Shown one piece after another: positions 8,487 through 44,845 of a stretch of 44,926 nt of DNA; positions within the stretch are counted from its first letter, which is position 1; each line of letters begins with the position of its first letter. A model generated the notes under the pieces. The model searched no databases. It saw only the letters and a list, made by a program, of their open reading frames with translations, and was not told where the DNA came from. The position numbers and the translations under genes are program-made. This DNA is from an uncultured Gammaproteobacteria bacterium (GTDB taxonomy: Bacteria; Patescibacteriota; Patescibacteriia; UBA9934; GWF2-40-263): the NCBI GenBank assembly GCA_964471375.1, contig CAYYFM010000073.1, forward strand, positions 1-44,926, read 5' to 3'.

Positions 8487-8552
8487 AGGACTTGACGCCA
8501 CTAAAGTGGCTTTGAATAAATAGCTAAATTCCTAGCGATTTTAATCGCGTCC
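8487..8552. repeat. two half-elements of the palindromic family (GCCACTAAAGTGGC and variant GCGATTTTAATCGC)
   Basis: aggacttGACGCCACTAAAGTGGCtttgaat abuts the grx start. TTCCTAGCGATTTTAATCGCGTCC (8529-8552) contains the stop codon (8541-8543) of the ferredoxin gene. Confidence 0.85.
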
Positions 8553-11365: not shown

Positions 11366-12463
11366 ATGCGCAAGGAGCAGTTCAGCCAATTATTTCCCGA
11401 CACGCCTGCTTACCGCTGGAAACAGATTGAGCAGGCGTTTTTCGTTCCGACCATTGTGTCTTGGGATGGCATCACTTCGCTTTCAAAAAAAATGCGAGCG
11501 GGCCTTGTGGACATTCCGTTTATGTCGGTGAAGGCAACACAAATCATGGTCAGTGCAAAAAAAGATACACACAAAGCATTACTTGAGTTATCTGATGGTC
11601 AAATCGTCGAATCTGTTCTCATGGAGAACGCACGCGGCGATTGGACGATTTGCGTTTCCTCACAGGTCGGTTGCGCCATGCGCTGTGGGTTTTGTGCCAC
11701 AGGAAAAATGGGCCTGAAGCGATCGCTCACGACCGATGAGATTGTGGATCAGTACCGATTCTGGAACTACTTCCTAGCCACTTTTTTACCCACCAAAGCT
11801 TTAGCGTCGGTGGGAGTCCAGTCCGAGACGGACGGGACTAAAGTCCCTAGGAACATGAAACGGATCAGCAACATCGTTTTCATGGGCATGGGTGAACCAC
11901 TTGCGAATTACGAAAATGTCAAAGCAACGCTCAACACATGGCTTGCCAATACCGACATTGGAAAAACACGCATCACGGTTTCAACGGTCGGAGTGCTTCC
12001 CCGTCTCGAACAAATCCTGACCGACAAAGACTGGCCACACGTTCGCCTCGCTGTCTCGCTTCACTCTGCAATTGCCGAAACGCGCAAACAGATCGTGCCA
12101 ACATCGTACGATGATTTTCTTCCAAAACTGCAAGACTGGGCGCGACGTTACTTGAGCATCCTTGGAAACCGTCGTCATCATCTGACGTTTGAGTACGTGA
12201 TGCTGAAAAACATCAACGACACCGACGAACACGCGCATGCACTCGCCGCATTCGTTCACTCGATTGGAAACGTCCGATGTAATCTCATTCCATACAACTT
12301 GACCGATTGTGAATTTTCGCGAAGCGAAGACAATCAGATTGCAAAATTTATTTCCATTTTAGAAAAAGCAGACGTCACCGCGACACGTCGAAAAACCATG
12401 GGAGATGATATCGCTGCTGCTTGTGGACAGTTGATTGTGCTATCAAAAAAAGCCAAAGGTTAA
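11366..12463 (+). CDS. rlmN: 23S rRNA/tRNA (adenine-C2)-methyltransferase, radical SAM
   Basis: AYRWKQIEQAFF, QVGCAMRCGFCATG (CxxxCxxC), MGMGEPLANY and GDDIAAACGQL motifs. Start set at ATG 11366, outside the hairpin. An 83-bp repeat is read through in frame. Confidence 0.9.
   Translation: MRKEQFSQLFPDTPAYRWKQIEQAFFVPTIVSWDGITSLSKKMRAGLVDIPFMSVKATQIMVSAKKDTHKALLELSDGQIVESVLMENARGDWTICVSSQVGCAMRCGFCATGKMGLKRSLTTDEIVDQYRFWNYFLATFLPTKALASVGVQSETDGTKVPRNMKRISNIVFMGMGEPLANYENVKATLNTWLANTDIGKTRITVSTVGVLPRLEQILTDKDWPHVRLAVSLHSAIAETRKQIVPTSYDDFLPKLQDWARRYLSILGNRRHHLTFEYVMLKNINDTDEHAHALAAFVHSIGNVRCNLIPYNLTDCEFSRSEDNQIAKFISILEKADVTATRRKTMGDDIAAACGQLIVLSKKAKG
11771..11853. repeat. composite palindromic element (83 bp) inside rlmN
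   Basis: TTCCTAGCCACTtttttaCCCACCaaagctttagcgtcGGTGGGagtccagtccgagacgGACGGGACTAAAGTCCCTAGGAA. Translated as FLATFLPTKALASVGVQSETDGTKVPRN. Confidence 0.9.
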
Positions 12464-13304: not shown

Positions 13305-13448
13305 ATGAATGACAATCTACTCGTAACCGTAGAGCAACTTTCAGCGTTTGTGTCCGCATCCCGCGACATGAACTTTGTTGGAGGAACTCGTCGAGAAAAG
13401 TACACGTGGATTGAGCGCCCGGCTCTAAGAGCCGGGCGACCACTGTAA
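13305..13448 (+). pseudogene. probable 5' remnant of a transposase/integrase gene, truncated by a REP hairpin
   Basis: MNDNLLVTVEQLSAFVSASRDMNFVGGTRREKYTWIER resembles N-termini I recall from rve-type integrase/transposase genes (unverified). The frame then runs into REP-encoded PALRAGRPL and stops. Confidence 0.3.
13416..13438. repeat. REP hairpin (variant)
   Basis: CGCCCGGCTC-taa-GAGCCGGGCG, a perfect 10-bp stem. Confidence 0.85.
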
Positions 13449-13458
13449 ACATTGGGTC

Positions 13459-13481
13459 ATTCCGGCTCTAAGAGCCGGAAT
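13459..13481. repeat. REP hairpin
   Basis: ATTCCGGCTC-taa-GAGCCGGAAT, identical to the copies flanking the RAYT gene. Confidence 0.9.
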
Positions 13482-24200: not shown

Positions 24201-27200
24201 ATCCCACATCAGTTTTGAAGATGACGCTGTATCACAATCTGAAAGTCCGCCACCAGAAAGCCCTTCGCTAGAATCGGACGAAAGAGTGACATGGCCAGCA
24301 AAGGTGATACCACCACCGGAAACGAAGTCGGTTCCGCTGTCACCGATATTTGTGAGGAGATTTGTATTCGCATCGAGGGTTCCTGAAAGGGTGTGGGCAC
24401 CGAGTGTGTCGGTGGAATTGTCGAAGGTGATGCCTCCATTAGCTGCAAGAGCACCGGCGACGGAGGCGGTGGACGAAAGTGTTGTTGCACCTGTGACTCC
24501 CAGCGTAGATCCGGCAGAAACAGCGCCTGACAATGAAGTCGTCGTTGAAACGGTCAGAGCACCTGTCACATCAACTCCAGAATTCGCGTCGACATTTCCA
24601 GCGAATGTAACCTGTCCAGTCGAGGCAAAAGAGAGAGCGCCAGTTCCAGATGTGGACAGAGTTGCGGATCCAAGGACAATCGCGGTTGCGGCGTCGAGAG
24701 TGAGGCTGTCGGCGAGTTCGGTGAAGTCGAGCGCGTCGTCGACTATATCGACAGTCACTGCTGCCGTCTCAGATCCTGAACCAGAAATTGAGATGTCACC
24801 AGATCCTGCGTCGGAAAGCGTTGCGAGATAATTTCCAGTCGTGTCTGTTCCGAGAGCGATTGAGTTTGAGCCAATCGTTGTTGCTCCTGTTGAGGAGATG
24901 GAGATGTCACCAGAGATTGCGACGGGATTATAGTTTGTACCGTCCGCAACAAGGATGAATCCTGAGGTGTTCGTTGCCATGAAAAGGTCGTCACCAGAGA
25001 TCGTGACATCACCGCCGATGGTGGCGTTTCCTGTTGTTGAAAGAGTAGATCCAATACTAACAGCTCCCGTGAGTGTTGAAGTTCCTGCCACTGCCAGCGT
25101 AGACGAGAGAGTTGTTGCGCCTGTCACGCCAAGAGTAGATCCAGCAGTGACTGCACCAGAGAGAGTGGATGTTGTCGAGACAGTGAGTGCTCCCGTCACG
25201 TCGAAACCAGAGTTCGCGTCAACGTTTCCAGCGAACGTTACCTGTCCAGTCGATGCAAAAGAGAGAGCGCCAGTTCCTGACGTTGAAAGAGCGACGGAGC
25301 CTAGAGCGATGTTTGTTGCAGCATCGAGTGTGAGACTGTCGGCGAGTTCTGTGAAGTCGAGCGCGTCGTCGACGATGTCAATCGTGACCGCGGCGGTTTC
25401 GGAGCCAGAACCAGAAATTGAGATGTCCCCAGATCCTGCGTCGGAAAGCGTTGCGAGATAGTTTCCTGTCGTGTCTGTTCCAAGAGCGATTGAGTTTGAG
25501 CCAATGGTCACCGCACCAGTGGAGGAGATCGTCATGTCGCCAGAGATGGCCACTGGGTTATAATTTGTCCCGTCAGCGACGAGGATAAAACCTGACGTGT
25601 TTGTTGCCATGAACAGATCGTCGCCAGAGATCGTGACATCACCGCCGACGGTGGTATTTCCTGTTGTTGAAAGAGTAGATCCAATACTAACGGCTCCTGT
25701 GAGCGTTGATGTTCCCGAAACAGAAATAGACGATAGTGTTCCGACTCCCGTGATCGCCGTCGAGACAGCATCGTTTGTGTCGAGTAGCGCGGCGTCTTTT
25801 CCGTCGAGACGATCGAGTTCGGTTGCAGAGATGGTTGTTGATGTTGTCGTGATGTCATTTGAGCCAATCGCAAGTGCTGTGACGATATCAGAATCGGATG
25901 CATCGATTGCTGTTGTGATGGCTCCAGCCGCGGATGAAATTTCAAGGGCGGTTGTGACAGCTTCGTCGGTGTCTGCGTTATCAAGAACAAGAAGACGTTC
26001 GGTGTTTGTTGAACCAGTGGAGTTGGCATTCTGGAGAACGAAAAGACGTTGGGATGTTGCGTCTGTCGAACCATCGTTTGTGATGGTGTACGTCAAACCA
26101 TCAAATGCTGCTGCAGTTGACGCGGTATTCCAATCGAGGGTCTGGACGGTTTCATTCATCGCGACAGCACCGTTTCCGGATGGATCACCGATCACATCAA
26201 ACGCGGTCGCTGATCCAGAGTTCTGGTCCGATCCACAGGAAAATTTATTCGTCGTCGCGTCCCACATGAGTTTGGATGTCGAAGCGGTGTCACAGTCAGA
26301 AAGTCCGCCACCAGATAATCCCTCAGATGAATCTGACGAGAGTGTGACATGTCCAGCAAACGTAATTCCACCACCAGAAACGAAGTCAGTTCCGCTGTCA
26401 CCGATGTTCGTGAGGAGGTTTGTATTTGCATCGAGGGTTCCAGCAAGTGTGTGTGCTCCGAGCGTGTCAGTAGAGTTGTCGAAGGTGATGCCACCGTTTG
26501 CGGCGAGAGCGCCAGCGACGGATGCTGTGGAGGAGAGAGTTGTTGCACCGGTTACACCAAGAGTCGAACCAACGGAGACAGCTCCAGACAGTGTTGAAGT
26601 CGTAGAAACAGTGAGTGCTCCTGTCACGTCGAGACCGGAGTTCGCGTCAACATTTCCAGCGAACGTTACCTGTCCAGTCGAAGCAAAAGAGAGAGCGCCA
26701 GTTCCAGACGTTGAAAGAGCGACAGAACCAAGAGCGATGTTTGTAGCAGCATCGAGCGTGAGGCTGTCCGCGAGTTCGGTGAAGTCAAGCGCGTCGTCTA
26801 CTATATCGACAGTCACTGCTGCCGTCTCAGACCCTGAACCAGAAATAGAAATGTCACCAGATCCTGCGTCGGAAAGCGTTGCGAGATAATTTCCTGTTGA
26901 ATCTGTTCCAAGAGCGACTGAGTTTGCGTCAATCGTTGTTGCTCCTGTTGAGGAGAAGGAGATGTCACCAGAGATTGCGACGGGATTATAGTTTGTACCG
27001 TCCGCAACAAGGATGAATCCTGAGGTGTTCGTTGCCATGAATAGATCGTCTCCAGTAACAGTGAGATCACCACCAACTGTGGTGTTTCCTGTCGTGCTTA
27101 GTGTCGAGCCTGTACTGACAGCTCCTGTGAGTGTTGATTCTCCAGAAACGGACACGGAAGAGAGTGTTGATGCTCCACTTACAGAAAGTGTGGAACCAGC

Positions 27201-29033
27201 AGAAACAGCACCGGACAATGTGGATGCGCCTGAGACAGTGAGAGCACCAGTCACGTCTGCGCCAGCGTTTGCATCGACATTTCCAGCAAATGTGACCTGT
27301 CCGGTCGAGACGAATGAAAGTGCGCCTGTTCCAGATGTAGACAGTACAGATGATCCGATGGCAATGTCTGTTGCGGCGTCAAGCGTGAGACTGTCTGCAA
27401 ATTCAGTGAAATCAAGCGCGTCGTCGGTGATGTCGATTGTTACTGACGCGGATTCAGAGCCGGATCCAGTAACCGTCAGATCTCCAGCTCCTGCATCGGC
27501 AAATACGGCGAGATAGTTTCCCGTCGTGTCCGCTCCGAGCTCAGCCGCATTTGGTGTAAGAGTGGTTGTTCCATTTGATGCGAGGATGACATCCCCCGAG
27601 ACAGCGACGGGATTATAGTTGATGCCGTCGGCAACCAGGATAAATCCGTCTGTGTTTGTTGTGAGGAATAGATCGTCACCCGTTATTATGAGATCGCCGC
27701 CAACCGTTGTATTTCCTGCTGTTGAAAATGTAGAACCAGCTGCAACAGCGCCTGCCAACGTCGTCACGCCCGAGACGGTGAATGCGCCTGTAACATCTGC
27801 ACCATTTGTCGCATCCACATTCCCCGCAAAGGTAACCTGTCCAGTCGAAGCAAATGAAAGAGCACCTGTTCCAGAAGTAGAAAGAGTTGAGGAACCAAGA
27901 GCGACATCTGTTGAACTGTCGAGGGTCAATGCATCAGCGAGCTCAGTGAAGTCTAGCGCGTCATCAACGATATCGATAGTCACAGCCGCGTTTTCTGATC
28001 CAGATCCAGTGATAGACAAATCCCCTGCTCCTGCATCTGAAAGTGTGGCGAGATAATTTCCTGAAGTGTCACTCGCGAGGTCAACGGCATTTGATTGAAT
28101 CGTTAACACGCCCAAATCGGACAGACTTGCATCTCCTGAAACTCCGATCGGTGTGAAATCTGTTCCGTTTGCAATGAGCAGAAAGCCTGATGTGTTTATT
28201 CCCATGGAGAGATTGTTTCCACTGATAGTGATGTCACCTGTTACGGTGAGATCAGAACCTGTTGTGACGACACCCGACAATGTTGATGATCCAGAAACAG
28301 AAAGGGATGCAAAGCTCGCGAGATCTGAAACAAAATCTCCGGCGATTGTAAGATCACCCGTTGATGTGAGTGAGTTCGTTGCATTGAAAAAATTGATTGA
28401 TCCAGTAACGCTCGATCCTTGCAATGTGAGAGAGTTGCTTCCTGTTGCGGTCACAGACGGATTCGTATCTCCAAGAACAAGTGAGCCGTCTGTAAGAACG
28501 GGAATCTGTTCGTCGACCGCCGACTGTGATGGAGTGTATCCACCAACGGAGTTGCTATTAATCGCATACCCAGAAGCACCGATACGCAATCGTGGTGAGA
28601 GTGTTTCAAATGTCACTCCTGTGCATGAACTACTAATTTGTTCAGCGACTTCGATGTTGAGATACGCTTCGTCCGTATCAAAAAAATCGAAATCGAGTGC
28701 GTCACCATCTGCAGACGTATCACCGATGCCTACTGAGTACACACCATCAACAACTTCGACGGTCATGGTGGACGGAGCACTCGATGGCCATAACGCTGTA
28801 TCAGGTGCTCCTACGACAGAGTCGCTATACATCGAAAAGCGAAAACAAAAATCTGTCCCATCACCCCCAAGTAAATTTCCTTCTCCATCAAGCAGTCTTC
28901 CTTGATGGTTTAAGATTTCGGGAACACCTGTTGCAGCAAGCAAAACAGCGGGATACCGAAGTATTCCCGTCAACACTAATATTAGACACACGAGACTTGT
29001 GATTATTCGTCTCATAGTTCGTTCGCTGACCAT
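21255..29033 (-). CDS. giant repetitive secreted fibre/adhesin-like protein (2592 aa)
   Basis: Uninterrupted 7.8-kb ORF with:
- a signal peptide
- six ~200-aa A modules (..GDDLFMATNTSGFILVADGTNYNPVAISGD..TGNYLATLSDAGSGD..DDALDFTELADSLTLD..)
- two full and one divergent ~270-aa B modules
- a Cys-containing distal domain
- a phage-tailspike-chaperone-like segment
- an acidic tail
An alternative start is ATG 29015 (MRRIITS). Confidence 0.85.
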   Translation of the reverse strand: MVSERTMRRIITSLVCLILVLTGILRYPAVLLAATGVPEILNHQGRLLDGEGNLLGGDGTDFCFRFSMYSDSVVGAPDTALWPSSAPSTMTVEVVDGVYSVGIGDTSADGDALDFDFFDTDEAYLNIEVAEQISSSCTGVTFETLSPRLRIGASGYAINSNSVGGYTPSQSAVDEQIPVLTDGSLVLGDTNPSVTATGSNSLTLQGSSVTGSINFFNATNSLTSTGDLTIAGDFVSDLASFASLSVSGSSTLSGVVTTGSDLTVTGDITISGNNLSMGINTSGFLLIANGTDFTPIGVSGDASLSDLGVLTIQSNAVDLASDTSGNYLATLSDAGAGDLSITGSGSENAAVTIDIVDDALDFTELADALTLDSSTDVALGSSTLSTSGTGALSFASTGQVTFAGNVDATNGADVTGAFTVSGVTTLAGAVAAGSTFSTAGNTTVGGDLIITGDDLFLTTNTDGFILVADGINYNPVAVSGDVILASNGTTTLTPNAAELGADTTGNYLAVFADAGAGDLTVTGSGSESASVTIDITDDALDFTEFADSLTLDAATDIAIGSSVLSTSGTGALSFVSTGQVTFAGNVDANAGADVTGALTVSGASTLSGAVSAGSTLSVSGASTLSSVSVSGESTLTGAVSTGSTLSTTGNTTVGGDLTVTGDDLFMATNTSGFILVADGTNYNPVAISGDISFSSTGATTIDANSVALGTDSTGNYLATLSDAGSGDISISGSGSETAAVTVDIVDDALDFTELADSLTLDAATNIALGSVALSTSGTGALSFASTGQVTFAGNVDANSGLDVTGALTVSTTSTLSGAVSVGSTLGVTGATTLSSTASVAGALAANGGITFDNSTDTLGAHTLAGTLDANTNLLTNIGDSGTDFVSGGGITFAGHVTLSSDSSEGLSGGGLSDCDTASTSKLMWDATTNKFSCGSDQNSGSATAFDVIGDPSGNGAVAMNETVQTLDWNTASTAAAFDGLTYTITNDGSTDATSQRLFVLQNANSTGSTNTERLLVLDNADTDEAVTTALEISSAAGAITTAIDASDSDIVTALAIGSNDITTTSTTISATELDRLDGKDAALLDTNDAVSTAITGVGTLSSISVSGTSTLTGAVSIGSTLSTTGNTTVGGDVTISGDDLFMATNTSGFILVADGTNYNPVAISGDMTISSTGAVTIGSNSIALGTDTTGNYLATLSDAGSGDISISGSGSETAAVTIDIVDDALDFTELADSLTLDAATNIALGSVALSTSGTGALSFASTGQVTFAGNVDANSGFDVTGALTVSTTSTLSGAVTAGSTLGVTGATTLSSTLAVAGTSTLTGAVSIGSTLSTTGNATIGGDVTISGDDLFMATNTSGFILVADGTNYNPVAISGDISISSTGATTIGSNSIALGTDTTGNYLATLSDAGSGDISISGSGSETAAVTVDIVDDALDFTELADSLTLDAATAIVLGSATLSTSGTGALSFASTGQVTFAGNVDANSGVDVTGALTVSTTTSLSGAVSAGSTLGVTGATTLSSTASVAGALAANGGITFDNSTDTLGAHTLSGTLDANTNLLTNIGDSGTDFVSGGGITFAGHVTLSSDSSEGLSGGGLSDCDTASSSKLMWDASTNKFSCGSDQTSSTATTFDAIGDPSGNGAVAMAETVQTLDWNTASTAAVFDGMTYTITNDSSTDSTSQRLFILQNANTTGSSATERLFVLDNADTNEAVTTALEISSAAGAITTAIDATDSDIVTALAIGSNDITTTSTTISATELDRLDGKDATLLDTNDAVSTAITGLGTLSTLTTSGNATIGGDVTISGDDLFMATNTSGFILVADGTNYNPVAISGDMTISSAGAVTIGSNSIALGTDTTGNYLATLSDAGSGDISISGSGSETAAVTVDIVDDALDFTELGDTLTLDAALSISGSASRTIDWSRTLTNATAENAMTISTIATDTTSATSSQFGLYVDNVASTEALDASIVLDNSDTDDVVGTAIKIIDAGGGFTSVIDNAGTLISGAELNRLDGKDAALVDQNDLTASDGSGATSSGSGLETGTGGIGLIQGCADGDILTWNDSSAVWQCGPNGAADTATFTDTTTELASFTTAADIWDGTFPNITVNTATATVLIAVNIRGTSDDANDQNPVFTIRRAQNSNPTCSSTQVGGEFVGDFLTANSEDWGASATFVDTGAFSASDNVRYTICTTTTGLDDGNTDEIRVSLVELGADLAENYYTTDDSIGPGDVVELDPSIPAGVKKASSPYNKNVIGVVSTAPGIILDDATGIGYGRAVPVALAGRIPVMVSTENGVVKAGDLLTSSSEPGVAMKATQAGQIIGQAMQDYGYNETQGLISMFIKTDFYNGTSSDQTTLDLTDLALVDGITFQTTGKFLHGILVDSIGSLSDLIAIQNDTIFFGRPYFNADMGGFARVSFGDRMVRVEFEDEYLDQPVVTASLTIESSDGSSVTAQTEQAFFNSGLSFIVTDKNTTGFTILLNRSAPADLLFSWTALAIRDARTEYSESGGHEEIRPSNDLQEIEEIEKIQVVEDIIPVIASETKQSSESEEEMTEEIAAPSARNDTEEEIDTSLSTELVESIEVPYVEIIETEIVE
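21351..21434. repeat. inverted pair of CATTGCGAG..GCAATC hairpin units (third small-repeat family)
   Basis: GTCATTGCGAGccgaaggcgcgGCAATC (21351-21378) and GATTGCttcgtttcaCTCGCAATGAC (21409-21434). Read in frame in the giant gene as VIASETKQSSES..EEIAAPSARNDT. Confidence 0.8.
23300..28300. repeat. high-identity internal tandem repeats of the giant gene
   Basis: The antisense shadow ORFs 23581-24831 and 25597-26889 translate almost identically. Strings such as GATCCTGCGTCGGAAAGCGTTGCGAGATA recur at about 24800, 25430 and 26860. The super-repeat period is about 2.0-2.06 kb and the A-module spacing about 0.6 kb. Confidence 0.9.
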
Positions 29034-36049: not shown

Positions 36050-36999
36050 ATTCCGGCTCTTAGAGCCGGAATCAAAACGACAGAATTATACAATCACTTA
36101 ATCCTAAACCCCAGCAAACGGTGCCATTCCGGCTCTAAGAGCCGGAATGGCTTTGACAGAGTAAGATGCCCGAAAGATTAGAACCAGACGAATGATGGTT
36201 CTTCTGCTCCAAAAAAAGTCGGAACTTTCAGATATTGTAGATACGCTTCTTTCGTTGCAAACCACTTTCGCACTATTTCTTCATCAACAACAGGTAACCG
36301 CTGTTTATTTTTCAAATAGACTGGATGACTAGACCAGCGATATTCATTCAGCTTTCTTTCGGCTCCACCATCCCAATTGGTATGACCGCCATCCCGCCAT
36401 TCAAATGGAGACCCATCTAAGGCATTTAAATGAATATAGCGTGGCAACAACTGAAGATGTTCTTCGGAATCGACCGGTTTTGCCTTAAAGGGGCCCTCAC
36501 AAAGCCGACCTTTCCGGTCATATCTGATGTTAAAATAATTGGCGTATCCCATTCCAACACGATGAAGAAATTTCGAAATTCCCTCAGGAACGGTTTGTTT
36601 TAGTAATAGGTGAAAATGAGTAGGTCGTAAACAAAATGAAACAATACTGACGAGTGGTTCTCTTCCGTAGGAATAAACCTCATGACCAGCAAGAAGCGCT
36701 TCTCGTTCTATTTCTGTTCCACCTCTGTGCTTATAATTTAGATCATTAAACAAATACATGGATTCATAAAATCGATGGTAATCATGTTCATCCAGAAAAA
36801 TAACCCGCTTATCTACACCACGGTTATAAACATGATAATAGCTGTTCGAAACAATAGGTTCACGCATAATTTTCGTAGTTAATCTGACCCTAACCGTCAT
36901 TCCGGCTCTAAGAGCCGGAATGAGAATCGGAACACCAGAACGGGTTTTTAAGCAAATTACTAGCAAACGGTGCCATTCCGGCTCTAAGAGCCGGAATGG
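36050..36999 (-). mobile_element. RAYT gene with flanking REP hairpins (REP/RAYT unit)
   Basis: REP hairpins at 36050-36072, 36124-36150, 36898-36922 and 36973-36999 bracket the Y1-transposase-like gene. The 38-nt string AGCAAACGGTGCCATTCCGGCTCTAAGAGCCGGAATGG is repeated in direct orientation on both sides (36113-36150 and 36962-36999). Confidence 0.75.
36178..36867 (-). CDS. REP-associated tyrosine transposase (IS200/IS605 TnpA-like, RAYT)
   Basis: YYHVYNRGVDKRVIF, the HUH motif in PTHFHLLLKQ, and the catalytic-Tyr region LLPRYIHLNAL. Start set at ATG 36865-36867 (MREPIV). The track's upstream 63 codons are REP sequence (..IPALRAG..) and overlap murF. Confidence 0.8.
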   Translation of the reverse strand: MREPIVSNSYYHVYNRGVDKRVIFLDEHDYHRFYESMYLFNDLNYKHRGGTEIEREALLAGHEVYSYGREPLVSIVSFCLRPTHFHLLLKQTVPEGISKFLHRVGMGYANYFNIRYDRKGRLCEGPFKAKPVDSEEHLQLLPRYIHLNALDGSPFEWRDGGHTNWDGGAERKLNEYRWSSHPVYLKNKQRLPVVDEEIVRKWFATKEAYLQYLKVPTFFGAEEPSFVWF

Positions 37000-37040: not shown

Positions 37041-38330
37041 TTATGTATCGAGCCACGTACCGTACTGGCGGACAAGGAGTTCTTGGGCGTGGGTGGGTTC
37101 GGCTAGGAGGTCTTTTACGGCTTTTTCCATGCGGGAGGATTGGGAGCCTTTTAGGAGAATTACGTCCCCATGCTTTATGTTGAAATCTAACCAGCGACCC
37201 GCTTCGGTGGATGTGGCGAAAAACTGAATGTGGGACTCATCCATTCCTGCTTCAATGGCACCGCGGCGGATATCGCGAGCTTCTTCGTTGACGCAGATAA
37301 GAAGATCAGCAACTTCTGCGGCGCGTAGGCCGAGCAGACGATGTTCCGGAACGCTATACTGACCGAGTTCGGCCATTTTGCCGAGAACGGCAATACGACG
37401 GGCGGAACCTACGGGACTAAAGTCCCTAAGAACTTCCAAGGCTGAACTCATGGATGCTGGTGCCGCATTATATGAGTCGTCGAGCAGAAGCGTTCCTTTG
37501 ATTCCAGCGAGTGGACGCATTCGTCCTGCGTGTGGCTCAAGCGTTGCAAGAGCTGTCACGATCTCATCGATTGTCATGCCAAGCTGTTTGCCAACCGCGG
37601 CAGCGGCAAGAGCGGCATAGACCTGACCACGCCCAAGCAGATTTGGAAGAACAACGGGGGCACGCTCCCGATCGAGACAGAGATCAAAATGAATCGCGCA
37701 CTTATCCATGCTTGTATCTGTCTGATAATTTTCTGCACGGACATCTGAAACGGCGCTGAATCCATACGTCACCGTTCTGCAATCTATTCGCTGTTCGATC
37801 ACAAGCGGATCATCCGCATTCAAAAATGCGACCCCGCCAGATTTCATCTTACGAACGATCTGACCTTTTTCTTTTGCGAGATCTTCCACAGACGCAAAAA
37901 ACTCTGCATGCACGGGAGTGACCGCGGTTAAAACCGAAATATCCGGAGGTGCCATCTGGCAAAGACGTGAAATATCACCAGGATGATCAAGACCAAATTC
38001 GAGGACGAAGTGGGTGGGTAGCGTGTAACGTTTAGCGTTTAGAACTGAAATAGGATACATCAAGCTAAAAGCATTCCAGAAAACTTTAATCCATCCAAAA
38101 AGAGATTTCCCTGGACTCTTCTCTCCGATAATTGTGAGTGGGACACCAAACTCATTATTATAATTTTCTGTAGGTGATCGAACGGAAAATTTTGTGCTCA
38201 AAACCGTCGCGATCGCATTACGCGTCGATGTCTTTCCTACCGACCCTGTAACAGCAATAACGGTTGGATGGTGTTTGTGAAGAATTTGTCTCGCAAAATA
38301 GGCGAGGAGAAATTGGATGAGTTTTTTCAT
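37041..38330 (-). CDS. murF: UDP-N-acetylmuramoyl-tripeptide--D-alanyl-D-alanine ligase
   Basis: Mur ligase P-loop VIAVTGSVGKTSTRNAI and LLLDDSYNAAPASM (MurF DDSYNANP-like). ATGA overlap with the ftsI stop. Contains two small in-frame repeat fragments. Confidence 0.85.
   Translation of the reverse strand: MKKLIQFLLAYFARQILHKHHPTVIAVTGSVGKTSTRNAIATVLSTKFSVRSPTENYNNEFGVPLTIIGEKSPGKSLFGWIKVFWNAFSLMYPISVLNAKRYTLPTHFVLEFGLDHPGDISRLCQMAPPDISVLTAVTPVHAEFFASVEDLAKEKGQIVRKMKSGGVAFLNADDPLVIEQRIDCRTVTYGFSAVSDVRAENYQTDTSMDKCAIHFDLCLDRERAPVVLPNLLGRGQVYAALAAAAVGKQLGMTIDEIVTALATLEPHAGRMRPLAGIKGTLLLDDSYNAAPASMSSALEVLRDFSPVGSARRIAVLGKMAELGQYSVPEHRLLGLRAAEVADLLICVNEEARDIRRGAIEAGMDESHIQFFATSTEAGRWLDFNIKHGDVILLKGSQSSRMEKAVKDLLAEPTHAQELLVRQYGTWLDT
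37411..37433. repeat. single-arm palindromic element inside murF
   Basis: ACGGGACTAAAGTCCCTAAGAAC, read as VLRDFSPV, a different element frame from the full-length copies. Confidence 0.85.
38018..38042. repeat. TAGCGT-word fragment inside murF
   Basis: GTAGCGTGTAACGTTTAGCGTTTAG uses the same words as the hairpin at 7288-7387 and the stretch at 8843-8866. Read in frame as LNAKRYTLP. Confidence 0.7.
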
Positions 38331-44030: not shown

Positions 44031-44047
44031 TCTGAGTGGTATTTTTT
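44019..44047 (+). terminator. rho-independent terminator (stop codon in the loop)
   Basis: ACCACTCAG-tagt-CTGAGTGGT followed by a T6 run. Confidence 0.7.
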
Positions 44048-44585
44048 ATCTCCTATACAAAAACAACTTCGACTTCCCTTCCACTTCATCCACCACCGAT
44101 GGCTCCCAGCCTTCGATGGGCCAGACATACGTGACAACGCGGGTGCCAGGACGGAGTTCTGCTTCGAGTTTTGGTCGGATTTTTTCGTACGTTTCTGGCA
44201 TGAGAAACATGTACACTGCGTCTGCGTCGCGTAAGTTGTATTGAAAGGCGTTTGCGAGGACGAATCGGACGTTCCATGTTCGCAGCATAACACGACGGAT
44301 ATTTGCGATGAGATATTGCAAAAGAGAAAGCTCGACTCCTACCAGATTGCAATTCCTAGGGACTTTAGTCCCATCAGATCCGGACGCCACTAAAGTGGCT
44401 AGGAACATGGAAACTCTTCCATCCCCACATCCAAGCTCCACAAATTTTTCTCCATCCTGAAGCGCAAGCAATTTCTTCAAACGATCAATATCCCCCCGAA
44501 ATGTCGGCACCCAAGGCGCCCCTGATGCCGAGGCGTAGGCAAGGGAAAAAAGTAGAATAAAAAAAATGATCCAAACGAATGTCAT
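44046..44585 (-). CDS. class I SAM-dependent methyltransferase with an N-terminal TM/signal segment
   Basis: SAM motif I VELGCGDGRV. A 53-bp palindromic element is read in frame as FLATLVASGSDGTKVPRN directly after motif I. Confidence 0.75.
   Translation of the reverse strand: MTFVWIIFFILLFSLAYASASGAPWVPTFRGDIDRLKKLLALQDGEKFVELGCGDGRVSMFLATLVASGSDGTKVPRNCNLVGVELSLLQYLIANIRRVMLRTWNVRFVLANAFQYNLRDADAVYMFLMPETYEKIRPKLEAELRPGTRVVTYVWPIEGWEPSVVDEVEGKSKLFLYRR
44353..44405. repeat. double-hairpin palindromic element, 53 bp (type copy), inside the methyltransferase gene
   Basis: TTCCTAG-GGACTTTAGTCC-catcagatccggacg-CCACTAAAGTGG-CTAGGAA. Confidence 0.9.
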
Positions 44586-44706: not shown

Positions 44707-44845
44707 GACGCCACTATATTCTGAACGCCACTAAAGTGGCTAGGAAATGTTCCTAGGGACTTTAGTCCCGTCTGGTTCTGAACGCCACTCCCACCGACGC
44801 TAAAGCTTTGGTGGGTAAAAAAGTGGCTAGGAAATGTTCTTTGGG
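44707..44845. repeat. cluster of palindromic elements next to tRNA-Pro, including a nested CCCACC..GGTGGG insertion
   Basis: GACGCCACT.., GAACGCCACTAAAGTGGCTAGGAA-atg-TTCCTAGGGACTTTAGTCCCGTC, and GAACGCCACT[CCCACCgacgctaaagctttGGTGGGtaaaaa]AGTGGCTAGGAA. Confidence 0.9.

Follow-up and report, generated by a model that had tools for sequence, protein, structure and literature searches.

Palindromic repeats in a Candidatus Uhrbacteria genome, probably of the REP/REPIN type, with copies in frame inside conserved genes

Introduction

What holds a small hairpin in shape while its bases change, and what carries it from site to site in a bacterial genome? The question is raised by contig CAYYFM010000073.1 of assembly GCA_964471375.1, whose 44,926 nucleotides are referred to here as the window. 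A preliminary description, made from the sequence alone, reported a family of double-hairpin palindromes built on the 8-mer ACTAAAGT and its complement ACTTTAGT at ten or more loci, saw no cognate transposase and did not recognise the family. It is nevertheless recognisable: the ACTAAAGT elements are probably a family of repetitive extragenic palindromes (REPs) and their inverted doublets (REPINs), with a REP-associated tyrosine transposase (RAYT) as the most likely driver and with intragenic copies that survive in tolerant loops. Studies of REP/REPIN-RAYT systems have been made almost wholly in Proteobacteria and a few other cultured groups, and reduced genomes are expected to be free of repeats. 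TatD homologues place the present organism in Candidatus Uhrbacteria, within the Candidate Phyla Radiation (CPR; Patescibacteria).

A Conserved 23-Nucleotide Hairpin Unit

The two 8-mers occur 17 times in the window, against about 0.7 occurrences expected from shuffles. They belong to a 23-nt unit in which a hairpin, made of a 5-bp G+C-rich stem and its complement around a TAAA loop, stands between (G)AC and a TNGGAA tail; the stems found in the window are GGGAC, GCCAC, GCGAC or GCGAT. With up to three mismatches allowed, the unit GACGSSACTAAAGTSSCTRGGAA has 18 intact copies in the window (0 expected) and is present at every one of the ten loci first listed. A covariance model built from 36 distinct units and run with its filters off recovered the identical 18 units (E ≤5e-8) and nothing further of significance. 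Three more units (4922-4975, 11771-11830 and 44780-44833) are interrupted in the loop by a nested 26-nt palindrome, CCCACC-N14-GGTGGG. The elements make up about 1% of the window, at a density of roughly one unit per 2 kb. They are usually arranged as inverted doublets of 53-62 nt in which the GAC ends lie face to face (six in the window, 30 analyzed overall), and alternating arrays are found as well. The type copy (44353-44405), TTCCTAG-GGACTTTAGTCC-CATCAGATCCGGACG-CCACTAAAGTGG-CTAGGAA, is such a doublet with one GGGAC and one GCCAC arm, and its sequence matches the one first reported letter for letter.

The stems have changed in base composition while remaining paired. When units were captured by a pattern blind to the stem bases (AC-N5-TAAA-N5-TNGRAA) from the window and related loci, 669 kb together, 99 of the 103 units had five Watson-Crick pairs out of five. 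The covariation set comprised 36 distinct units, 29 of them from searches that did not require pairing and 7 from one that did. All five stem pairs vary on both sides in this set, and pairing is observed in 98.9% of cells compared with 70.9% after shuffling. The covariation score was 0.638 versus 0.149 in shuffles, a value reached by 0 of 500 shuffles, and pairing fell to 25-46% when the 3′ partner was slid by 1-3 columns. A scan of a genome collection imposed no base at the two variable stem positions of either side, so that 4 pairing and 12 non-pairing combinations were allowed; its 80 matches, in 72 stretches, use three of the four pairing combinations and none of the 12 others. The proposal that the arm stems covary with pairing kept is thus borne out beyond the shuffle and slide controls.

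No variation is seen in the TAAA loop, and hardly any in the AC and T-N-GGAA beside the hairpin. Selection on a folded structure, as first proposed, agrees with the compensatory stem changes; the accompanying phrase "rather than on primary sequence" does not agree with a fixed loop and near-invariant flanks, which together form the pattern expected for a site recognized by a protein. Two other structural claims stand in part. Each arm was described as a small hairpin, which the covariation supports, whereas folding with ViennaRNA turns the doublet into one long imperfect hairpin and not two small ones; for the homodimer 2432-2484 the predicted fold is a perfect 23-bp hairpin (-29.6 kcal/mol, z -12.7). 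The outer closing repeat (TTCCNAG/CTNGGAA), also said to covary, is complementary at 1979, 2432, 44353 and 11771 and is not complementary at 4869-4921 and 5648-5700.

A RAYT Homologue Bracketed by the Units

A scan for HUH and tyrosine motifs picked out two ORFs. In the Uhrbacteria genome ELA555 (locus L068), an ORF of 188 aa (2717-3283) matches Pfam Y1_Tnp (PF01797) above the cut-off and the whole NCBIfam model of the REP-associated tyrosine transposase (NF047646) with an E-value of 2e-16, below the 80-bit naming cut-off. The protein can be aligned with Escherichia coli TnpA-REP (4ER8) at the catalytic Tyr motif. Immediately upstream of its gene are four ACTAAAGT units, and downstream of it another five. 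A homologue with 63% identity to this protein is encoded on an unrelated metagenome contig (L082), flanked by two doublets upstream and one downstream. It is by repeats on both sides of a RAYT-family gene that a RAYT and its REPs are recognized (PMC3337134), and the bracketing of both homologues argues that the family is a REP/REPIN-RAYT system. The link is a genomic association in two genomes of the Uhrbacteria type, from which we infer that the units may be mobilized by the RAYT.

The window itself contains a Y1/HUH transposase-like gene (36181-36867, minus strand) between murF and rplJ, whose 229-aa product carries the motifs HFH and YIHLN. With this gene, and with RAYT homologues bracketed by units in related genomes, the earlier statement that none can be seen is true only in part. 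The product matches Pfam Y1_Tnp with an E-value of 6e-4 (20.3 bits, below the cut-off of 23) and the NCBIfam REP-associated tyrosine transposase with an E-value of 0.023; PF01797 is present in most of its homologues, and the gene keeps its murF/rplJ position in two relatives (L076 and L080). On either side the gene has two copies of another palindrome family, ATTCCGGCTCTWAGAGCCGGAAT (36050-36072 and 36126-36148; 36899-36921 and 36975-36997), and two more copies of this family, whose core is CCGGCTCTNAGAGCCGG, lie at 13419-13435 and 13459-13481. Homologues of the gene elsewhere have their own co-varying flanking palindromes. These palindromes, and the lack of ACTAAAGT units near the homologues, point to a second, low-copy REP-transposase pair and not to the partner of the ACTAAAGT units. 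One copy of the second family has the form CCGTC-ATTCCGGCT-CTAAG-AGCCGGAAT, like a CGTC-type REP. The Y1-like gene shows 66% DNA identity, versus 84-88% for its neighbors, and both gene and palindrome foot are fast-diverging.

All-against-all clustering of the ORFs from the 72 loci of the genome-collection scan found no transposase that recurs beside the units. The most recurrent family in that clustering is a four-helix-bundle gene resembling the protein of 23S rRNA intervening sequences (IVS), which does not adjoin the units. Its members lie at 5308-5677 in L021, 5365-5776 in L043, 174-564 in L051, 6492-7203 in L038, 6510-6897 in L075, in L022, and at 2002-2361 in L080, and short tandem repeats are located just downstream of several of them. 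A weak tblastn match of the RAYT in a Zixibacteria locus (L014) was rejected, being a FAD-linked oxidase and not a transposase.

The proposed mechanism is as follows. The elements would be unable to move alone and would depend on a RAYT acting in trans; RAYTs are Y1 HUH enzymes akin to the TnpA of IS200/IS605. The target of this enzyme on single-stranded DNA would be the 5-bp hairpin with its TAAA loop, together with the unpaired flanks AC and TNGGAA, and the enzyme would then cut and rejoin the recognized hairpin. Such recognition would keep the stem paired despite base changes and hold the loop and flanks fixed. Elements may have landed in the gene-dense DNA of this Candidatus Uhrbacteria genome, where copies that fell in tolerant surface loops, left the frame unshifted and brought no stop codon could persist through selection and be translated as extra loops, and where other copies may now supply start or stop codons. 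The single-stranded route, the catalytic steps, and the translation and harmlessness of the inserts are what we infer from these patterns.

Copies Inside and at the Ends of Genes

Many copies lie in frame within conserved genes, a fact missed by the preliminary description. TatD contains two doublets; an RlmN-like and a methyltransferase-like gene contain one each, and MurF holds a single unit. The TatD ORF (1753-2781, minus strand) matches its Pfam family over the full length, and its doublets at 1979-2037 and 2432-2484 are read as FPGTLVPSEADTDATKVAGN and FTATLVASDPDATKVAVN, respectively. In the RlmN-like radical SAM gene, the doublet 11771-11853 with its nested palindrome adds 28 residues, FLATFLPTKALASVGVQSETDGTKVPRN. 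The type copy is in frame in the methyltransferase-like ORF (44046-44585, minus strand) and is read as FLATLVASGSDGTKVPRN, and the unit 37410-37432 (plus orientation) in the MurF ORF (37041-38330, minus strand) is read as LRDFSPV. The intragenic copies are stop-free in the host frame, and the conserved sequence downstream stays in frame. The inserts measure 18-28 residues, for example F-L-A-T-L-V-A-S..D-G-T-K-V-P-R-N. Because the element is palindromic, the same peptide arises from both orientations, and spacer length sets whether a doublet can be read through in one of the three frames or in two. An AlphaFold2 model of TatD shows a confident barrel (mean predicted local distance difference test score, pLDDT, 82.8; predicted template-modeling score 0.80) from which both inserts emerge as loops with pLDDT <50. 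In other Uhrbacteria, doublets are found within long ORFs of 230-900 codons with an open frame every time.

At three further loci, copies overlap the ends of genes. The likely start codon of the RsmI-like gene (ATG, minus strand, 5652-5650) lies in the terminal CTATGAA of the doublet 5648-5700, and the C-terminal tail and stop codon (4906-4908) of the same ORF are encoded by the array 4846-4975. The stop codon of a small ferredoxin-like ORF, the Suc_Fer-like gene, falls in a hairpin loop (8541-8543).

The argument for intragenic copies rests on genes with conserved domains on either side of the insert. Spacer length modulo 3 was rejected as proof of translation, as an open frame exists in every spacer class and a definition of "intragenic" by spanning ORFs is circular. 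A doubled profile of the insert peptide returned no candidates, and among 1.84 billion representatives a profile of the four window inserts matched for the most part low-complexity repeat proteins and so was uninformative. The proteins of the window genes have no exact match on record.

Comparison With Syntenic Relatives

Two related contigs, L001 and L076, are syntenic with most of the window, with 77-88% DNA identity over most aligned blocks. They hold one ACTAAAGT-type site in 41 kb, namely the shared MurF unit, which occupies the same place in L076. Alignments between the window and its relatives stop exactly at the elements. For instance, the metG-like and RsmI-like genes, separated by the array 4846-4975 in the window, abut in L001 with nothing between them. 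The closest TatD orthologue (P0002, on contig L001) is 89% identical over aligned residues and is without either insert. Judged from these alignments, the elements are insertions relative to the syntenic relatives. In other Uhrbacteria, one orthologous doublet has one arm changed (GGGAC versus GCCAC), and at another site a doublet of one genome corresponds to a lone unit of the other. Alignments of orthologous loci reveal no direct target duplications flanking the filled sites.

The same protein loops can be occupied differently. L001 has a Pro/Thr-rich linker in the RlmN loop instead of the doublet, and L076 has a different hairpin insert in the methyltransferase loop. Other in-frame inserts are seen in the same loops of relatives (L076 at about 1890-1985, L001 at about 700-745, and the TatD homologues P0002, P0018, P0020 and P0035). 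These inserts are short and palindromic or of low complexity, and include the hairpin CTCCCCCTTTAAATGGGGGAG, a Pro/Thr linker, GSPTLTTS and diverged ACTAAAGT-like peptides such as FQATLVAVQRDGTLVPGN. On a larger scale, a 10.7-kb segment of the window (18205-28923), which encodes cohesin/dockerin-like ORFs and an ORF of 2592 aa, is absent in L076, where its flanks are contiguous at 17540.

The Individual Copies in the Window

In the first doublet of TatD, a unit on the minus strand with a GCGAC stem (1979-2001) and one on the plus strand with a GGGAC stem (2015-2037) are separated by 13 nt, whereas the second, 2432-2484, is a homodimer with a GCGAC stem in each arm. The four-unit alternating array between the metG-like and RsmI-like genes (4846-4975) runs 4846-4868 (plus), 4869-4891 (minus), 4899-4921 (plus) and 4922-4975 (minus), the last being split by a nested palindrome at 4940-4965. 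The inverted doublet 5648-5700 continues into (TAGGAA)x9.2 (5695-5749), in which its tail is perfectly repeated in tandem; this hexamer repeat is read as FL repeats in an open frame upstream of the RsmI start. Two units with their TNGGAA tails facing each other, 8494-8516 (plus, GCCAC) and 8529-8551 (minus, GCGAT, with a TTAA-type loop), lie between the glutaredoxin and Suc_Fer-like genes.

The left unit of the doublet 11771-11853 (11771-11830) is split by a nested palindrome at 11789-11814 and is joined to the right unit 11831-11853 (plus). A single unit (18863-18885, plus) lies at the 5′ end of the ORF 17926-18975; within the locus 18863-18948 it is followed by 3.7 copies of a 15-nt tandem repeat, CTAGGAATCTTGTAG (18879-18933), and then by a terminal TTCCTAG. 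The 15-nt repeat is read as FLATR repeats on the minus strand, in the ORF found there. An intergenic array beside tRNA-Pro (44707-44845) consists of a partial unit (44707-44722), the units 44724-44746 (plus) and 44750-44772 (minus), the unit 44780-44833 (plus) split by a nested palindrome at 44790-44815, and another partial unit (44837-44845).

The nested 26-nt palindrome, CCCACC-GACGCTAAAGCTTT-GGTGGG, is present in the loops of GCCAC units in plus (4940-4965 and 44790-44815) and minus (11789-11814) orientation. Its 14-nt core, found in both orientations relative to the host hairpin, resembles a stemless unit. In L082, a different insert occupies the identical loop position of a unit. Heptamer tandem repeats of GTAGCGT and CTACTCA are located at 7294-7388, in the spacer of the superoxide dismutase and AhpC-like genes.

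Distribution Across Genomes

The exact-pattern scan, restricted to one genome per species, found 72 loci where an estimated 4 or so are expected by chance. They belong to several Uhrbacteria, to other Patescibacteria (Parcubacteria and Falkowbacteria) and to several Zixibacteria bins, and the unit is unchanged across hosts with a G+C content of 39-65%. In the Zixibacteria doublets, which are intergenic, one arm is GCCAC and the other CTGAC, CCGAC or CCGGC. No copy was found on viral contigs. An apparent occurrence in Gammaproteobacteria and Ignavibacteria was rejected because the bins are probably mislabeled: their proteins are 75-93% identical to those of Uhrbacteria and 74-82% identical to those of Zixibacteria. 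The public metagenome-assembled genomes concerned (among L021-L075: CAYRYG01, CAZDDW01 and CAYOSZ01), labeled Gammaproteobacteria or Ignavibacteria, are probably misassigned.

A degree of horizontal spread is suggested by the fact that Patescibacteria and Zixibacteria share the unit. As a speculation with a low chance of being right, REP-type elements of the CPR might regularly supply proteins with new loops and might pass from one phylum to another. What suggests this is that the same 22-nt unit is multi-copy in Uhrbacteria and in Zixibacteria, that hypervariable loops of housekeeping enzymes are reoccupied, and that the hairpin loop is itself a landing site for other palindromes. If a RAYT and its REPs were swapped between Patescibacteria and Zixibacteria, for example between episymbiont and host, the family would mark a physical association and would be an exception to the vertical inheritance attributed to REPIN-RAYT systems.

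Weighing the Explanations

Several observations weigh against a REP/REPIN family driven by a RAYT. Of the 30 doublets, which come from many genomes, only eight have fully complementary outer ends (6 nt), and 27 are heterodimers with a different stem in each arm, so that the doublet is no well-paired REPIN hairpin; heterodimers are predicted by ViennaRNA to fold with about -9 to -10 kcal/mol. Together with the covariation, these weak folds indicate that the constrained feature is the small hairpin of each unit and not the doublet. About half of the window loci touch coding sequence, whereas REPs are by definition mostly extragenic, and the occurrence of the unit in two phyla sits poorly with descriptions of REPIN-RAYT systems as strictly vertically inherited. 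The "empty" sites of relatives are hypervariable loops, often with other inserts, and the orthologue comparisons yielded no close pair of filled and empty sites that would fix the exact junction, target site or strand. The L068-type RAYT does not lie within the 45-kb window, which is the part of the genome covered here. The Y1-like gene that does lie there is flanked by a palindrome other than the ACTAAAGT unit, and three of its homologues in other genomes have no ACTAAAGT unit within 20 kb.

A rival idea is that this Y1/HUH-like gene (36181-36867), and not an L068-type RAYT, moves the units now or moved them formerly. The gene sits in the window with HUH-like and Tyr motifs, and its flanking palindrome in this genome, ATTCCGGCTCTTAGAGCCGGAAT, has ATTCC/GGAAT at its two ends, as do many doublets (ATTCCNAG...CTNGGAAT), around a loop of a similar C-T-T-A-G type. 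The shared foot is probably coincidental because it differs in a relative: the L076 orthologue has a CTCCC/GGGAG stem foot, though its species carries ACTAAAGT units. As the gene is bracketed by its own palindrome, the three homologous loci are free of ACTAAAGT units over 20 kb, and the L068-type RAYT that is bracketed by units has no similarity to the 36181-36867 protein detectable by BLASTP, this gene is an unlikely source. Host-selected function is doubtful to a slightly greater degree. The units would then be sites acting in RNA, as stabilizers, terminators or regulators, or in DNA, as binding sites of nucleoid or topology proteins; roles of this sort have been proposed for REPs (PMC3733652), the structure is kept through compensatory changes, and many copies stand at gene ends. 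Against this, Rfam gives no match to the units (its sole match in the window is the tRNA-Pro), no T-runs follow the hairpins, copies are located in the coding regions of unrelated enzymes, and their presence varies between syntenic relatives. The association of the units with a transposase gene points instead to spread by transposition, with which a secondary host function may coexist.

Ordinary MITEs (miniature inverted-repeat transposable elements), that is, deletion derivatives of insertion sequences with terminal inverted repeats, mobilized by a DDE transposase and leaving target duplications, would likewise be short, palindromic, abundant and non-coding, and some copies here do have inverted ends of 6-7 nt. 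Such an origin is very improbable, since the filled sites are without direct target duplications, complementary outer ends are confined to the 8 of 30 doublets, and no DDE transposase or other insertion sequence recurs in the 72 loci. The repeated module, moreover, is a single 23-nt hairpin unit that is found also alone and in arrays. Least credible of all is that the intragenic copies escape translation, being cut out of the transcript or skipped by the ribosome in the manner of an intron or bypass element. Stable local structures are predicted within the mRNAs; yet all four intragenic doublets of the window are stop-free in the host frame with the downstream conserved domain in frame, and both features count against excision because an excised element needs neither. 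Doublets in long ORFs of other genomes are likewise open, and no intron or ribozyme family matches.

Implications

A dense REP system in a reduced CPR genome would be a REP system in an unexpected host. Its copies appear to have altered protein sequences, adding loops of 18-28 residues to TatD, RlmN and a methyltransferase and providing start or stop codons for other genes, and they would extend the phenomenon of the Rickettsia palindromic elements (RPEs) to a second reduced-genome lineage, now with a candidate enzyme. For practical work on CPR metagenome bins, such units will break assemblies, mislead gene callers and inflate apparent protein divergence. A short unit with a conserved loop and flanks also offers a well-defined substrate for studying target recognition by RAYTs. 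A literature search for the 14-mers returned an unrelated DosR-box paper only, another returned no paper linking RAYTs or REPINs to the CPR or Patescibacteria, and a survey of the HUH superfamily makes no mention of RAYTs or REPINs in Patescibacteria.

Relation to Known Repeat Families

REP/REPIN-RAYT systems (Nunvar 2010; Bertels and Rainey 2011; PMC3116915, PMC3337134) share with the ACTAAAGT family short, dispersed, imperfect palindromes arranged as inverted doublets and alternating arrays, a small Y1/HUH gene with those repeats on both sides (here in L068 and L082), and stems that covary around conserved unpaired bases. The units described here are smaller, with a 5-bp stem and doublets of 53-62 nt compared to about 89 nt for the REPIN of SBW25, and the doublets are mostly heterodimers that pair poorly as one hairpin. 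Further differences are the reduced CPR host, the presence of the unit in two phyla (Patescibacteria and Zixibacteria) and its location: in place of a predominantly extragenic distribution, four doublets and one unit lie inside conserved ORFs and three loci at gene ends. The coding habit has a precedent in REP dimers found within genes, where they encode 20-30 residues, and in REP ends that serve as stop codons (Di Nocera et al., 2013; PMC3733652).

The GTAG and CGTC super-families of REPs (PMC3733652) likewise combine a hairpin with an unpaired tag and a tail and occur predominantly as dimers, with heterodimers common. As defined by Di Nocera et al., neither tag fits the present unit, whose flanks are (G)AC and TNGGAA. 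CGTC REPs have a CGTC tag, an 8-9-bp stem starting with AT, a loop of 4-5 nt and a CCA tail (PMC3733652); the stem here is 5 bp long and starts with G, and CGTC is confined to the opposite strand, where it takes in the last base of the stem, although the 4-nt loop does fit. CGTC REPs have also been reported without a transposase, whereas the ACTAAAGT family has a candidate one. GTAG REPs carry a GTAG tag at one end, a stem of 5-13 bp and an association with RAYTs (PMC3733652); stem length and RAYT link agree with the present family, in which the bases adjacent to the stem are CCTA, CCCA or CACA and not GTAG. The second palindrome of the window, CCGTC-ATTCCGGCT-CTAAG-AGCCGGAAT, looks closer to the CGTC type.

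The bacterial interspersed mosaic elements of E. coli are REP mosaics of alternating orientation. The arrays at 4846-4975 and 44707-44845 are alike in alternating and in pairing two stem variants as heterodimers; the sequence is different, and copies here also lie inside genes. The small dispersed repeats of Nostoc, described by Elhai et al. in 2008, are reportedly built of 21-27-nt units with compensatory stem changes, nesting and an association with short tandem repeats. Likened by description only, the ACTAAAGT family agrees with these cyanobacterial repeats in unit size, compensatory stems, nesting and tandem repeats, and we know of no transposase linked to the latter. Rickettsia palindromic elements, the subject of work by Ogata et al. 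in 2000 and 2002, are said to lie in frame in conserved genes and to be tolerated as surface peptide segments. In-frame palindromes in the conserved genes of a small-genome bacterium are thus common to RPEs and the ACTAAAGT family; compared by size and host, RPE-1 measures about 100-150 bp versus 53-62 bp here and the lineages are unrelated, and a candidate transposase is available here. RPEs are also cited in the context of REPs (PMC3733652). The present family is of a known kind, that of the REP/REPIN-RAYT systems, and is unusual in its host, its density and its habit of residing in coding sequence.

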